From Nitrososphaerota archaeon (lineage in GTDB: Archaea > Thermoproteota > Nitrososphaeria > Nitrososphaerales > UBA57): DNA of 19,046 bases. The DNA is taken from positions 1-19,046 of the forward strand of contig JACAFS010000017.1 of the NCBI GenBank assembly GCA_013378385.1. The letters are read 5' to 3'. Shown one piece after another: positions 66 to 14,415 of this stretch. Position 1 is the first letter of the stretch. The number at the start of each line of letters is the position of its first letter. The position numbers and the translations under genes are program-made. The notes under the pieces are model-generated. The model saw only the letters and a list, made by a program, of their open reading frames with translations, was not told the origin of the DNA and did not search any database.

Positions 66-93
66 GATGTTAATATAATTTAATATCAACATC
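66..93 (-). terminator. Imperfect inverted repeat downstream of the EF-1alpha stop (possible 3'-end hairpin)
   Basis: GATGTT(AATAT)...(ATAT)CAACATC; the outer arms 66-71 and 88-93 are perfectly complementary. It lies 14-41 nt past the stop at 107 and is followed on the minus strand by T-rich tracts. Confidence 0.3.
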
Positions 94-106
94 AAGAATT
101 AAGAGT

Positions 107-1414
107 TTATTTTAGATCCCATTCTGCATTGATTTCTTTAACTACACCAGCGGCTATGGTTGTACCCATATCTCTTAGTGCGAATCGTCCCATTTGTGGG
201 TATTCAGTAAATGTCTCAAGACATAATGGTCTTAATGGTTGAATCTTTACAATTGCAGCATCTCCAGTTTTTAGCGCTTTAGGTTTTTCTTCTAAAACAC
301 CTCCAGTTCGTGCATCGAGTTTAGAAACTAATTCTGTTATAGTTGCAGCAGCTTGTGAAGTATGCGCATGTATAACAGGGGTATAGCCAGGGGCTATAGC
401 AGTAGGATGATGTACAACAATGATCTGTGCAGTAAATTCTTTAACAACTTTAGGTGGGTCATCAATCGGACCAATTACATCACCACGACGAATGTCCTTT
501 TTATCAACGCCACGAAGGTTGAATCCAATATTATCACCTGCAGAGGCTTGTTGCATCTCAACATGATGAGATTCAATAGATTTTACTTCAGCAGTTGCGT
601 TACTAGGCATGATAATGACCTTTTCTCCTACTTTGAATGTGCCAGTTTCGACTCTTCCGACTGGAACAGTTCCAACACCAGTAATAGAATAGACATCCTG
701 AAGTGGAAGTCTCAATGGTTTATCAACAGGGGGCGCTTCTACTTCGAAATCATCAAATGCTTGGTAAATAGTTTTACCGTCATACCAGTCAAGATTATCG
801 CCCTTATTGATGAGGTTATCGCCCTTCCATCCTGAAACAGGGATAATAGGAACCTTTGAGAGATCCCAACCAACGCCTTTTAATAATTTTTCAACTTCAA
901 CCTTTACTTCTTCATATCTTTCCTTTTTATAACCGACTTCGTTGGCATCCATTTTATTAACGGCAACAATCATTTGTTTTACGCCTAAAGTTTTGAGTAA
1001 GAAACAGTGTTCTCTAGATTGTCCGCCAGGTGCAATAGCAATTTCTGTTTCTCCGGGTTTACCAGAAACACAAAGAACAGCGGCATCTGCTTCAGAAGCG
1101 CCAGTAATCATGTTTTTAATAAAATCTCTGTGTCCAGGTGCATCAATAAGAGTGAAATCAAATTTTGGAGTTTCAAATTTCTTGAATGCTAAGTCAATAG
1201 TAACACCACGTTCTCGTTCGTCTTTCAGATTATCCATAACCCATGCGTACTTGAATGTATCACCTTTACCTGTTTTTTCAGATTCTTCTGCAAATTTGTC
1301 AATAGTTCGTTCATCAATGACTTTGAGGTCAACAAGAAGGTGACCAATTATAGTAGATTTACCTTGGTCTACGTGACCTGCTACAATTAAATTAAGATGG
1401 GGTTTGTCTGCCAA
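107..1414 (-). CDS. tuf: Archaeal translation elongation factor 1-alpha (EF-Tu/EF-1A family GTPase)
   Basis: 435-aa ORF with GTPase motifs GHVDQGKST (G1), DAPGH (G3), NKMD (G4) and SGWKG (G5), plus full domains II/III. The N-terminus xADKPHLNL is typical of aEF-1alpha. The only usable start is TTG at 1412-1414: an in-frame TAG lies four codons upstream and the next Met lies after G1. AGGT sits 7 nt upstream. Confidence 0.97.
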   Translation of the reverse strand: MADKPHLNLIVAGHVDQGKSTIIGHLLVDLKVIDERTIDKFAEESEKTGKGDTFKYAWVMDNLKDERERGVTIDLAFKKFETPKFDFTLIDAPGHRDFIKNMITGASEADAAVLCVSGKPGETEIAIAPGGQSREHCFLLKTLGVKQMIVAVNKMDANEVGYKKERYEEVKVEVEKLLKGVGWDLSKVPIIPVSGWKGDNLINKGDNLDWYDGKTIYQAFDDFEVEAPPVDKPLRLPLQDVYSITGVGTVPVGRVETGTFKVGEKVIIMPSNATAEVKSIESHHVEMQQASAGDNIGFNLRGVDKKDIRRGDVIGPIDDPPKVVKEFTAQIIVVHHPTAIAPGYTPVIHAHTSQAAATITELVSKLDARTGGVLEEKPKALKTGDAAIVKIQPLRPLCLETFTEYPQMGRFALRDMGTTIAAGVVKEINAEWDLK

Positions 1415-1520: not shown

Positions 1521-1525
1521 AAAAA
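1521..1525 (-). terminator. Oligo-T termination signal after tRNA-Tyr
   Basis: The minus strand reads ...GGGACCA-TTTTT immediately after the encoded CCA. Archaeal RNA polymerase terminates at oligo-T tracts. Confidence 0.4.
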
Positions 1526-1542
1526 TGGTCCCGCGGGTCGGA

Positions 1543-1563
1543 CTTTCATGGATTTTTATCCAA
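1543..1563 (-). other. tRNA intron 4 (21 nt, between positions 59/60)
   Basis: Strict BHB. The central helix is T54 T55 C56 A57/TGAA, with bulges A58 A59|T and A G|T60. The inner hairpin is TGGAT-AAAA-ATCCA. The outer helix is the T-stem GTCGG/CCGAC, which is contiguous only once intron 3 is looped out or removed. Confidence 0.82.
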
Positions 1564-1569
1564 TTTGAA

Positions 1570-1588
1570 TTCGTCGAGCATAAGCCCT
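1570..1588 (-). other. tRNA intron 3 (19 nt, between positions 53/54)
   Basis: The insertion is A-GGGC-TTAT-GCTC-GACG-AA. The central helix is C48 G49 T50 C51/GACG, with bulges G52 G53|A and A A|T54. The inner hairpin is GGGC/GCTC with a TTAT loop. The outer helix is weak (BHL-like at the 3' site). Confidence 0.78.
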
Positions 1589-1604
1589 CCGACGACAGTC
1601 CGGT

Positions 1605-1649
1605 TCCTGTGTTGCTTGGCAAACTGTTCGGATAAGCCAAGGCTTAACC
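1605..1649 (-). other. tRNA intron 2 (45 nt, canonical 37/38 position)
   Basis: Strict BHB. The anticodon stem TCCGG/CCGGA is the outer helix and the central helix is CTGT(32-35)/ACAG. The bulges are A36 G37|G and G A|A38. The inner helix is GTT/AAC, extended by GC-TTGGC/GCCAA-GC. Confidence 0.9.
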
Positions 1650-1664
1650 CTACAGCCGGAAGCT

Positions 1665-1677
1665 TTTGGCAATATTT
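1665..1677 (-). other. tRNA intron 1 (13 nt, D-arm, between positions 22/23)
   Basis: The insertion AAATATTGCCAAA splits the D-stem 3' strand (G22 | A23 G24 C25). A 4-bp helix TGGT(17a-20)/GCCA is followed on each strand by 3 nt with the junction after the second (AG|A and AA|A). There is no inner helix, so this is a relaxed BHB. The exact junction is ambiguous by 1 nt because of A repeats. Confidence 0.7.
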
Positions 1678-1762
1678 CTACCAAGCTGAGCTACCGCGGG
1701 CCTGCGGAAAATCATAAGATAATACCGCGGGTCGCGAGACCGAAATAATAGAGTACAGAAAA

Positions 1763-1772
1763 GAATAAAAAA
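1763..1772 (+). promoter_or_regulatory. Candidate TATA box for the pterin dehydratase operon (probably leaderless mRNA)
   Basis: GAATAAAAAA is centred about 27 nt upstream of the ATG at 1794. That is the usual TATA-to-start-site distance in archaea, and there is no SD-like element. Confidence 0.35.
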
Positions 1773-1793
1773 CTACCGCAGCGCTACATAATT

Positions 1794-11750: not shown

Positions 11751-13067
11751 ATGAATGTGGCTGTTTTAACGATATCCGGGTTAAGAGGCATAATGGGAGA
11801 AGATTTGTTCGGTAATGATATATTAGACACGATTTATAATTTTGTCAGTTCAAAGGAGATAAAAACTTGTGCAATTGGGAGGGATACGAGGTCAACGTCA
11901 GAAATGCTTCATCAGGTAGTTCTTTCATGTCTATTAGCAGAAGGGTGCAACGTAGAGGATTTAGGAGTAACGTCAACGCCATCAGTATTTCGTCATGTTA
12001 AAAAGAATAATTTAGACGGAGGAGTATGTATAACGTCTTCACACAATCCAAAAGAATGGAACGGTTTAAAATTAATCATTAGGCCAGGAAGAATAATTAA
12101 ACCAGATGAATTGAACAACAAAAACACAAAGAATTATTCATTCACTGGGACAAAGAAAGAACTAGAAACATGTTATTACAATGATTTAATTGAATTCTTT
12201 AAAGATGAGAGATTCCATGGGTTAAAAATAGGTATGGATTTAGGAGGAGGGGCAGCGTGCATATTTGTGAAAGATATTTTTATAAAACTAGGATGTCGGG
12301 TTTATACAATAAATGACTCTCCAGGAACGTTTAATCGAATAATTAATCCAACTGAGGATCCATTGGAATCGCTTTCAAAACTAATAGTAGAAAATGAGTG
12401 TAATGTAGGATTTGCATTTGATGCGGATGTTGACAGATTAGTAATACTAAATGAGAGAGGTGAGAAGATAGCTCCTGATTTTTCTCTATTAGCAGGCATA
12501 AAATATATTGAACAGAGGTTCAAATTGGAAAAAGCGGCAATTAGCATAGACAGTTCCTTATCCATAATCAATTATCTAAAAAAAATCAATTGTGAAATAC
12601 TTACAACGCCAGTAGGAGAAATTAGCGTATTGGAAAAGATTCAAAGTGGGAAATGTCAAGTAGGAGGAGAAGGCAGCAGTGGAGGATTTATTTATCCGGA
12701 ATTTAATTTATGTAGAGATGGGATTCTATTAGCTTTAATGGTTTCGAGGTTAGTGGAAAATTATGGAGATGTAGATAGTATATTCTCGGACATTGAGAAA
12801 TTTAAACAAAAAAGGATAAAGATAAAGACGAATCCAGAAAATTTCAATGTAATAAAAGAACATTTTTTAAAATTAGATAATGTAACATTCATTGATGGAA
12901 TAAAGATCACACCTAATGATGATAAATGGGTATTAATTAGGCCATCAAATACAGAGAAATGCATAAGATTGTCAGTTGAGGCAAATAATGAGAAAGATGC
13001 ACAGGATTTAATTGATGAATATAAGAATCAGATAGAGAATTTACTCAGTGACTCTACAAGTCATTAA
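11751..13067 (+). CDS. alpha-D-phosphohexomutase family enzyme (PGM/PMM/GlmM-type), paralog 1
   Basis: 438 aa with the catalytic loop CITSSHNPKEWNGLKL and a metal loop FAFDADVDRLV (degenerate relative to DGDGDR). GEGSSG is present. Confidence 0.85.
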   Translation: MNVAVLTISGLRGIMGEDLFGNDILDTIYNFVSSKEIKTCAIGRDTRSTSEMLHQVVLSCLLAEGCNVEDLGVTSTPSVFRHVKKNNLDGGVCITSSHNPKEWNGLKLIIRPGRIIKPDELNNKNTKNYSFTGTKKELETCYYNDLIEFFKDERFHGLKIGMDLGGGAACIFVKDIFIKLGCRVYTINDSPGTFNRIINPTEDPLESLSKLIVENECNVGFAFDADVDRLVILNERGEKIAPDFSLLAGIKYIEQRFKLEKAAISIDSSLSIINYLKKINCEILTTPVGEISVLEKIQSGKCQVGGEGSSGGFIYPEFNLCRDGILLALMVSRLVENYGDVDSIFSDIEKFKQKRIKIKTNPENFNVIKEHFLKLDNVTFIDGIKITPNDDKWVLIRPSNTEKCIRLSVEANNEKDAQDLIDEYKNQIENLLSDSTSH

Positions 13068-14415
13068 TTAAATCATTAATCAATTTTGAACAGTTCTCAG
13101 TTATTGTATCCAAATGAGTTTGACTATCAGATTCACTAAATAACCTTATAATAGGTTCAGTTCCACTTGGACGAATTAAAGACCAACTGTTATCATTCCA
13201 AAGAATTTTAAGGCCGTCAGTTTGATCAATTGTTTCAGATAATGAAGATGCAATATTAGAAATAATGGAGTCACGAGAATCAATTGGACAGGAGAATTTA
13301 GTCTTGTGCTGATAAAATTGTGGCAAAATAGAAAGATGTTGAGAGAGTTTTTTATCTGAAAAAGACAACAATTCAAGCATAAGTGCAGTACCCATTGCGC
13401 CGTCTCTTACGGCAACATGAGGAGAATAAAGGCATCCGCCATTTTCTTCAAAACCGAATTTAGAATCTAATTCTATCATTTTATGTGAAACGTCTACACT
13501 ACCTACTTTAGTACGATACACTTCAACGTCGTATTTTGATGCAATTTTTTCAATTATTTGTGAAGTAGCAATAGTGGTAACAATAGGAGATTTAATGCCT
13601 TTTTGAATAAGATGTTCGCCTACAAGAGTTCCTGATTTATCACCCCAAAAAACAGTACCAGTTTCATCGCAGAATATACTTCTATCACCATCTCCGTCAT
13701 ATCCAACGCCAATATCTGCGTTGTTTTCAACAACAGATTTAGATAGAAAATCTAATGTTTTAGGAGTAGGTTCGCCTCCACGTCCAGAGAAATTTCCATC
13801 AATATGATTATTTAGAGTGATTACTTCGCATCCAAGGTCCTCAGCAATAAATGGGGCACTTAAGGCCTGAGTGCCATTTCCAGAATCGATAACAATTTTT
13901 AGTTTACGCTTTTTGATAGATGAAGAATCGACATTTTTTATTACAGAATTAATATAATCAGTGACTACAGAACTATTAGATGTCATATTTCCTACTCCTT
14001 GCCAGTCTTTTCTTGAATATTTTTTCTGGAAATAAATATCCTCGATTATGTCTTCGTCGGATCTTGAAACTTCAATTCCAGTAGAAGAAATTACTTTGAT
14101 TCCGTTATATTCAGCAGGATTATGAGATGCAGTAATCATTACGCCGCCGTCAAAAGAATTCTTTGTAATTAATTGAATGCCAGGAGTTGGGACCATATTG
14201 GCAAAAACAACGTTCTTTCCAGATTCCATCAATCCTGCAGAGATAGCACGAGAAATAGAAGGGCTAGAATGACGGCCGTCATATCCAACTATTATATTAT
14301 TGCCTTCAAAAAAGGAACCAATACTCAGACCCATATTTACAATAAAATCAAGACCGTACTCCTTACCAGGAATGAATCTAATGCCATTTGTTCCAAAAAG
14401 TTTCTTATTAGTCAA
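13054..14415 (-). CDS. alpha-D-phosphohexomutase family enzyme (phosphoglucosamine/phosphomannomutase-type), paralog 2
   Basis: 453 aa with LFGTNGIRF at the N-terminus, catalytic loop MITASHNPAEYNGIKV, canonical metal loop GVGYDGDGDRSIF, GFEENGG, and IRPSGTEP as the phosphate-binding loop. Confidence 0.9.
   Translation of the reverse strand: MTNKKLFGTNGIRFIPGKEYGLDFIVNMGLSIGSFFEGNNIIVGYDGRHSSPSISRAISAGLMESGKNVVFANMVPTPGIQLITKNSFDGGVMITASHNPAEYNGIKVISSTGIEVSRSDEDIIEDIYFQKKYSRKDWQGVGNMTSNSSVVTDYINSVIKNVDSSSIKKRKLKIVIDSGNGTQALSAPFIAEDLGCEVITLNNHIDGNFSGRGGEPTPKTLDFLSKSVVENNADIGVGYDGDGDRSIFCDETGTVFWGDKSGTLVGEHLIQKGIKSPIVTTIATSQIIEKIASKYDVEVYRTKVGSVDVSHKMIELDSKFGFEENGGCLYSPHVAVRDGAMGTALMLELLSFSDKKLSQHLSILPQFYQHKTKFSCPIDSRDSIISNIASSLSETIDQTDGLKILWNDNSWSLIRPSGTEPIIRLFSESDSQTHLDTITENCSKLINDLINDL

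Follow-up and report, generated by a model that had tools for sequence, protein, structure and literature searches.

How can the gene of an essential tRNA lie in an archaeal genome without being seen by the programs that search for it? This question is raised by a 175-nt locus on the minus strand (1700..1526) of contig JACAFS010000017.1 (assembly GCA_013378385.1), a 19,046-nt stretch of DNA that was analysed as a whole and is called the window in the following. In its unspliced form the locus gives no ARAGORN call, neither with nor without the -i intron search, and no Rfam match at the gathering score, with only noise at E<=10. If four segments are taken out, a perfect 77-nt product remains, which ARAGORN identifies as tRNA-Tyr(gta). 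A preliminary description had proposed a four-intron tRNA-Tyr(GUA) gene at precisely these positions, to be checked by intron-aware ARAGORN runs, and the proposal is borne out by this comparison. Based on sequence comparison, we consider it probable, at roughly 0.85, that the locus is a functional tRNA-Tyr(GUA) gene spliced at four bulge-helix-bulge (BHB) introns and that its 5' leader is the remnant of a fifth one. The host belongs to the heterotrophic marine Nitrososphaerota (HMN; the phylum was formerly called Thaumarchaeota), archaea with an average genome size of 0.97 Mbp that include the metagenome-assembled genome (MAG) SAT139 (PMC13374868), to which we return below.

All four stems of the spliced cloverleaf are fully paired, and the conserved U8, A14, G18 G19, U33, G53, T54 T55 C56 and C61 are all present, as had been claimed for the universal positions and stems. 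The product has a 7-nt anticodon loop (CUGUAGA), the T-loop TTCAAAT, a C1-G72 pair, A73 and an encoded CCA. A GUA anticodon, a C1-G72 first pair and A73 as discriminator are the identity elements of archaeal and eukaryal tyrosyl-tRNA synthetases, and the spliced CCCGCGG...CUGUAGA...CCGCGGG-A-CCA carries all three. A BHB-naive spliced alignment, using the mature sequence only, recovered the same four junctions, which makes their assignment independent of the BHB motif. The five exons follow one another in order on a single strand, all within 175 nt, so the gene is not of the split or permuted type.

Read 5' to 3' on the minus strand, on which all parts named here lie, the gene begins with exon 1 (CCCGCGGTAGCTCAGCTTGGTAG, 1678..1700, 23 nt, positions 1-22), which contains the acceptor 5' strand, U8 A9, the D-stem 5' strand, the D-loop and G22, and whose sequence is unchanged in every orthologue. 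It is followed by the relaxed intron 1 at 22/23 (AAATATTGCCAAA, 1665..1677, 13 nt) with the central helix TGGT (1683-1680)/GCCA (1670-1667) and the bulges AG↓A and AA↓A (arrows mark the cuts). Exon 2 (AGCTTCCGGCTGTAG, 1650..1664, 15 nt, positions 23-37) supplies the D-stem 3' strand, the anticodon stem 5' strand and C32 U33 G34 U35 A36 G37, and leads into intron 2 at the canonical site 37/38 (GGTTAAGCC...CACAGGA, 1605..1649, 45 nt). This is a strict hBHBh' motif with the helix CTGT (1655-1652)/ACAG (1610-1607) and the bulges AG↓G and GA↓A, in which the anticodon stem serves as outer helix (5 bp) and the inner side consists of 3 contiguous bp plus the hairpin GCCTTGGC/GCCAAGC. Exon 3 (ACCGGACTGTCGTCGG, 1589..1604, 16 nt, positions 38-53) covers A38, the anticodon stem 3' strand, the variable loop CUGUC and the T-stem 5' strand. 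Intron 3 at 53/54 (AGGGCTTATGCTCGACGAA, 1570..1588, 19 nt) is of the relaxed HBh' type, with the helix CGTC (1594-1591)/GACG (1575-1572), the bulges GG↓A and AA↓T and the inner helix GGGC/GCTC. Exon 4, delimited by spliced alignment, is a 6-nt micro-exon (TTCAAA, 1564..1569, positions 54-59) from the T-loop. Intron 4 at 59/60 (TTGGATAAAAATCCATGAAAG, 1543..1563, 21 nt) has the central helix TTCA (1569-1566)/TGAA (1548-1545), the bulges AA↓T and AG↓T and the inner helix TGGAT/ATCCA. Exon 5 (TCCGACCCGCGGGACCA, 1526..1542, 17 nt, positions 60-76) completes the tRNA with U60, the T-stem 3' strand, the acceptor 3' strand, A73 and CCA.

The four BHB helices had already been named in the preliminary description, and they hold in a test of the register that the archaeal splicing endonuclease demands, in which both cuts fall after the second nucleotide of a 3-nt bulge and a 4-bp helix separates the bulges. 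To this end, the tetranucleotide that stops 2 nt short of the 5' cut was compared with the one that stops 2 nt short of the 3' cut. The central helix is 4/4 at all four introns and likewise at the leader relic. A random junction pair in the locus sequence passes this test with a probability of 0.023, so that the match at all four pairs (~3e-7 under the null) is far beyond chance. Junctions 1 and 4 can each be slid by one base with the same product (22/23 or 23/24; 59/60 or 60/61), and the BHB register picks 22/23 and 59/60 among these alternatives. The introns of the gene carry flanking helices of the strict (hBHBh') or relaxed (hBH or HBh') kind. The earlier classification of introns 2 and 4 as strict and of introns 1 and 3 as relaxed can be kept with one amendment: intron 4 becomes strict only after intron 3 has gone, as its outer helix comprises 0 bp before and 5 bp (the T-stem) after removal of intron 3. 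As the central helix of intron 3 takes up T-stem nucleotides 49-51, it is incompatible with the T-stem. Judged by these geometries, intron 3 is likely to be spliced ahead of intron 4.

Conservation of the locus points to a gene in use. Four other metagenome contigs carry the 175-nt precursor without any difference, and the same four-intron gene lies upstream of EF-1alpha in the MAGs L006-L008 and at eight further metagenome loci. Among 11 distinct genes, variable columns amount to 0/77 in the exons versus 32/98 in the introns (Fisher p=7e-10); among 14 distinct genes including the distant L109, they amount to 1/77 versus 47/98. The sole exon substitution is A59G in L109, and none occurs across the window and SAT139 clades, while the introns of lineages with invariant exons differ at up to 36% of aligned positions. 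Nevertheless, intron drift respects pairing. With the BHB helices specified by hand, 98.6% of cells are paired, compared with 33-44% if the partners are slid by 1-3 columns. Seven helix pairs show compensatory double changes, and 0/500 shuffles match the observed values on four of five measures. These changes include two pairs in the inner helix of intron 3 (G-C/A-U and U-A/C-G) and three in the inner helix of intron 4, one of which shows four pair types; the BHB pairs of intron 2 are conserved among orthologues. Exon constancy together with compensatory intron drift argues strongly for a functional spliced gene and against both a pseudogene and a chance cloverleaf.

Beyond the four introns, relatives of the host carry a fifth one, which the preliminary description had missed, as it had the relic at 1731-1701 in the window leader and another four-intron lineage with partly different sites; its four-intron account itself is supported. 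In SAT139 (L009) the tRNA gene has no contiguous 5' end but reads CCCGCGGTA↓TGATATTTTATGATATCCCGTAG↓GCTCAG, and the spliced alignment requires six exons, with an extra intron of 23 nt at 9/10. This intron forms the helix GCGG/CCGT with the bulges TA↓T and AG↓G and a 6-bp inner helix. Five-intron orthologues are found at L009, L088, L099, L102-L105 and L109, the last having introns at 9/10, 22/23, 37/38, 53/54 and 59/60. In L109 the 9/10 intron (TGATACCATGGGTATCCCGTAA, bulge AA↓G) keeps the motif by compensatory changes in the inner helix, which is GATAT/ATATC in L009 and GATACC/GGTATC in L109. The 9/10 intron measures 22-23 nt throughout the SAT139 clade and L109 and is obligatory there; in L009, L088, L102-L105 and L109 the distal copy of tRNA positions 1-9 is the only one.

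In the window, the homologous sequence forms part of the 5' leader. The leader contains a distal, redundant copy of positions 1-9 (CCCGCGGTA, 1723..1731), which is the homologue of exon 1 of the five-intron genes, then the vestigial 9/10 intron TTATCTTATGATTTTCCGCAGG (1701..1722) with the helix GCGG (1728-1725)/CCGC (1707-1704), and is followed by a second CCCGCGGTA, which provides positions 1-9 of the tRNA. Compared with the five-intron genes, the window clade thus contains 10 additional nt immediately 3' of the intron, an insertion that repeats tRNA positions 1-10. Within this clade the distal copy has mutated, to CCCACGG (L007/L093/L096) and CCAGTGG (L008/L101), while the proximal copy is invariant. 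The partner strand has followed these changes (CCGTAGG and CCACAGG), so that the leader helix is retained with two compensatory pairs, G-C to A-U and C-G to U-A. Use of the distal CCCGCGGTA by the window gene, with a 9/10 intron of 31 nt, was also weighed and rejected, since the 3' junction would have to pair GCGG with GCGG; the mutated distal copies of the L007- and L008-type genes contradict it as well.

An EF-1alpha tree joins the window clade and the SAT139 clade as sisters (81-83% identity) and places L109 outside them, at ~70% identity to both. Since L109 has five introns, five are more parsimonious as the ancestral number, and the four-intron state of the window probably derives from a five-intron ancestor, the vestigial fifth intron documenting how an intron was bypassed by exon duplication. 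A tentative, somewhat unlikely extension of this reading is that the 9/10 intron was neutralised by a re-inserted 10-nt copy of exon 1 and that the leader BHB helix has stayed under selection and is perhaps still cut. As part of the same tentative suggestion, this route of intron neutralisation would be one that the cited literature does not describe. If true, the splicing endonuclease would contribute to tRNA 5'-end maturation, and five introns in a 77-nt RNA would be sustainable in a genome of ~1 Mbp.

Upstream of the relic, the leader octamer GTCTCGCG (1733..1740) is complementary to the 3' end CGCGGGAC, i.e. to the acceptor 3' strand plus A73 and C74. Its sequence GTC(C/T)CGCG is conserved in the window clade, the SAT139 clade (L009, 2712-2719) and L109 (1224-1231). 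Each of the three transcripts pairs it with CGCGGGAC in the minimum free energy (MFE) structure, and so does the RNAalifold consensus, in which pairing survives a U.G/C-G difference. The octamer may act as a functional pseudo-acceptor helix or represent a third copy of the 5' strand that has decayed.

Several observations weigh against the conclusion that four BHB introns and a remnant of a fifth make up this gene. Intron 3 has 4 inner bp and no outer helix, and intron 1 is the weakest motif of the four, with 2 inner bp and 1 outer bp, and is counted as lacking an outer helix. In the L006 orthologue, a C.A mismatch interrupts the central helix of intron 3. In free-energy folding the conformer with all BHB motifs reaches -57.9 kcal/mol compared with -78.0 kcal/mol for the MFE structure, and RNAalifold replaces the canonical 37/38 motif by 8 invariant bp between the D-loop and the 3' arm of intron 2. 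We regard the latter preference as neutral to mildly negative evidence; neither single-sequence MFE folding nor RNAalifold reproduces the complete BHB set, and folds were counted as support only for helices actually recovered. Finally, the direction of change between five and four introns was read from a neighbour-joining tree of a single protein (EF-1alpha). The deletions that yield the cloverleaf were, moreover, first chosen by eye with many degrees of freedom, which could favour a chance product of four free deletions or an artefact of a chimeric contig. We regard this as barely credible, as the identical 175 nt occur in independent assemblies from different projects, the exact exons recur with entirely different intron sets (L094, L113, L086, L097, L098, L100), and the BHB register coincides at all four junction pairs. 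The failure of standard tools to recognise the locus might likewise indicate a decaying pseudogene, with a normal tRNA-Tyr gene elsewhere doing the work. However, the relaxed constraint in stems and conserved nucleotides that characterises tRNA pseudogenes is not seen here: the exons stay invariant where EF-1alpha is only 70-83% identical and 48% of intron columns vary, and compensatory substitutions maintain the intron helices. Furthermore, among 241 million metagenome records 0/16 hits had an intron-free 3' half, though the search pattern permitted such copies, and a spare gene fits poorly to genomes of such small average size (PMC13374868), and most archaeal chromosomes carry non-redundant tRNA sets (PMC3293823). 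A pseudogene is therefore highly improbable, the gene is probably single-copy, and the earlier claim of functionality, to which synteny in many assemblies also contributes, can be upheld.

Two further alternatives concern the leader. The leader hairpin might still be cut, at GGTA↓T (between 1723 and 1722) and AG↓G (between 1702 and 1701), which would give five processing sites and, before RNase P acts, either a one-nt leader or, after ligation, a shortened one; five cleavages would then take place where four are needed. The exact BHB register of its central helix (4/4), the retention of this helix by two independent compensatory changes in the window clade, its homology to a true intron of the sister clades and the hairpin predicted by RNAalifold all speak for continued cutting. 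Against this, the inner helix next to the 5' bulge has decayed in the window clade, with 0 contiguous pairs compared with 6 in L009, the motif has no outer helix, and a plain hairpin with one mismatch can form between the 3' bulge nucleotides AGG and CC in the distal copy. In addition, the covariation is explained equally well by selection for sequestering the redundant 5' strand from the acceptor 3' strand. We therefore treat a fifth processing event as possible but doubtful. Alternatively, the polarity might be reversed, with the arrangement of the window being ancestral, the 9/10 intron having arisen by deletion of the proximal 10 nt and the window representing an intermediate of intron gain. 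Two events are needed in either scenario, and the resemblance of the octamer GTC(C/T)CGCG to yet another decayed 5'-strand copy may indicate that the 5' end was duplicated more than once. This alternative is nonetheless unlikely, since L109 branches outside both clades (~70% vs 81-83% in EF-1alpha) and possesses an obligatory 9/10 intron with a well-formed 6-bp inner helix, so that either two independent, identical 10-nt deletions or a basal position of the window clade would be required.

Other lineages have other intron sets. L094 has four introns (30/31, 37/38, 53/54 and 59/60) with identical exons (83-266, plus strand), and L113 (~2638, minus strand) is an independent assembly confirming this type of gene; L086, L097, L098 and L100 have three (30/31, 37/38 and T-loop), again with identical exons. 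Homology across lineages can be recognised for the 37/38, 59/60 and 53/54 introns, which are therefore old: a homologue of the 59/60 intron is found in every lineage examined, the 53/54 intron of L094 is positionally homologous to intron 3 of the window, and the motif CAGCCTGCCAAGC in the 37/38 intron is common to the L009 clade and L094. In contrast, only the group of HMN and L109 has introns at 22/23 and 9/10; the site of intron 1 (22/23) is occupied in the SAT139 clade and L109 (14-17 nt) and empty in L094 and the three-intron lineages. With respect to the host of L094, its neighbouring AcnX-swivel protein has relatives of just 46-47% identity; the contigs L110-L112, related to L094, contain no tRNA-Tyr. 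The GC-richer L086, L097, L098 and L100 have long 37/38 introns of 57-70 nt that share GGCGCTGATC...CTTACAGAA. Three introns, as in the L086-type genes, already exceed the maximum of two for Thaumarchaeota (PMC8450103 Table S7).

As to transcription, an A/T box GGTAGTTTTTTATTC (1763..1777) resembles a promoter and would be the B recognition element (BRE)/TATA region, as judged by spacing only; a box resembling CGATAGTTATTTAT lies upstream of tRNA-Tyr in other lineages. The distance from the end of the box to the distal CCCGCGG of the window is 33 nt, compared with 34 nt to exon 1 in L009 and L109, and in L086, L097, L100 and L094 the box ends 24-26 nt before tRNA position 1. This spacing to the distal or only exon 1 suggests that the leader hairpin of the window is probably transcribed. 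At the other end, a T5 run immediately 3' of CCA (1521..1525) is a probable archaeal terminator, and T-rich tracts follow CCA in all orthologues. We thus envisage a precursor of ~220 nt, transcribed from the A/T box near 1763-1777 and made up of a ~40-nt leader, exons of 23/15/16/6/17 nt and introns of 13/45/19/21 nt. The archaeal splicing endonuclease, presumably of the (alpha-beta)2 type by analogy with the literature on the phylum, would cut each intron at its BHB motif, with intron 3 leaving before intron 4, an RtcB-type ligase would join the exons and RNase P would trim the leader. In evolutionary terms, the ancestral exon 1 and the 9/10 intron would have become a structured leader once the 10-nt duplication had restored a contiguous 5' end.

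The mechanism itself, in which the splicing endonuclease cuts BHB introns, is known; the degree and the setting are new. According to the tRNAscan-SE 2.0 paper, archaeal tRNA genes hold up to three introns (PMC8450103), and the same ceiling appears in PMC4033280, PMC3293823 and PMC3218864. The 16 three-intron genes listed for 217 genomes are all from Thermoproteales, and none of the 11 Thaumarchaeota genomes has a gene with more than two introns (PMC8450103 Table S7). Searching full texts for archaeal tRNAs with four or five introns, with incomplete journal coverage, brought up only the red alga Cyanidioschyzon merolae with a maximum of three. With four introns in the window and five in its orthologues, the gene would hold the record, and the earlier statement that its count is at or beyond the known maximum agrees with the literature.

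The closest parallels are the multi-intron genes of Thermoproteales (Pyrobaculum, Thermofilum, Caldivirga), which also combine short BHB or relaxed introns at canonical and non-canonical sites (D-arm, T-arm) with colinear exons. They likewise include nested or mutually exclusive motifs that need ordered removal, and a heterotetrameric endonuclease is found in the host phylum, too (PMC8450103, PMC4033280, PMC4090602); Thaumarchaeota are reported with alpha2beta2 endonucleases that accept relaxed motifs (PMC4090602). However, the Thermoproteales genes stop at three introns and the window gene additionally includes a 6-nt micro-exon. Moreover, those hosts are hyperthermophilic, whereas the window stems from a mesophile of the cold deep sea whose genome measures ~1 Mbp. 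The thaumarchaeal introns annotated by tRNAscan-SE 2.0 belong to the same phylum and are of the same kind, and a clade-specific BHB model exists because they differ from crenarchaeal ones (PMC8450103). That set stops at two introns, compared with three in the L086-type genes, four in the window and L094, and five in SAT139 and L109. The three-intron nuclear tRNA genes of C. merolae also have BHB introns in the D-arm, at 37/38 and in the T-loop, and the outer introns were experimentally shown to leave before the 37/38 intron (PMC3728597); the maximum there is three, compared with four or five colinear introns in an archaeon. Leader or exon-boundary BHB motifs processed by the same endonuclease are likewise present in the split tRNAs of Nanoarchaeum and Caldivirga and in the permuted tRNA-Tyr(GUA) of Thermofilum pendens, whose parts are joined at 59/60, where the window gene has its intron 4 (PMC3218864). 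Unlike these, the exons described here are colinear, and the BHB-like leader element is the relic of a cis-intron that is not needed for tRNA assembly.

These findings have consequences for both annotation and evolution. The published ceiling of three introns was reached only in hyperthermophilic Thermoproteales, and two was the limit in Thaumarchaeota; here, mesophilic archaea of the deep sea, with genomes that rank among the smallest of any free-living cell, have four in an essential tRNA and five in sister lineages. Such numbers in ultra-streamlined mesophiles mean that intron load is not tied to hyperthermophily or to large genomes rich in mobile elements. The states of three, four, five, and four plus a vestige form a rare natural series for the gain and loss of BHB introns; among its features are a 6-nt micro-exon and motifs that exclude one another and predict splicing in an obligatory order. 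MAG annotations of these and perhaps other Nitrososphaerota probably list tRNA-Tyr as missing. As the locus is invisible to ARAGORN and Rfam, completeness estimates would be affected and tRNA finders aware of multiple introns are needed. ARAGORN with intron options called no tRNA on 17 contigs of the clade, and a scan of the same contigs for GC islands gave no further tRNA candidate. In Nitrosopumilales, tRNA prediction yields a mean of 43.6 genes per genome (218 in 5 genomes), compared with ~46 in other Thaumarchaeota (PMC8450103 Table S7); the lower count would fit fragmented genes like tRNA-Tyr being missed by tRNAscan-SE.

In the genomic neighbourhood, the EF-1alpha gene (107-1414) lies 111 nt downstream of tRNA-Tyr on the same strand, and its product is 93-94% identical to those of three Nitrososphaerota MAGs, 82% to that of SAT139 and ~70% to those of ammonia-oxidising genera. 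The EF-1alpha neighbourhoods of ~75 other Nitrososphaerota genomes contain no tRNA-Tyr, so that synteny is unusable for ammonia oxidisers. Since tRNA-Tyr is also absent upstream of EF-1alpha in L106-L108, a GC-richer sister lineage of L109 (EF-1alpha 72-74% identical), the synteny is confined to the HMN and L109 lineages. A minus-strand open reading frame overlapping the tRNA gene (1392-1640, 82 aa, TTG start) was dismissed as spurious, as it is not called on any homologous contig. Within the gene, TGCCAA occurs in both intron 1 (1667-1672) and intron 2 (1615-1623) and is complementary to GCTTGGT of the D-loop (1680-1686); this could reflect a competing precursor fold or an origin of intron 1 from intron 2. 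A C/D-box small RNA in the 45-nt intron was discarded as a candidate, as there is no evident pair of C-box and D-box and no Rfam match. No gene for the splicing endonuclease or the RtcB ligase is located within the window. Its other genes include a divergent pterin-4a-carbinolamine dehydratase, a haem-copper oxidase operon, whose cytochrome oxidase subunit I protein is identical on 24 deep-ocean metagenome contigs, ETF/ETF-QO and two phosphoglucomutase/phosphomannomutase (PGM/PMM) paralogues. The latter are convergent (11751-13067 on the plus and 13054-14415 on the minus strand), and their 3' ends overlap by 14 nt.

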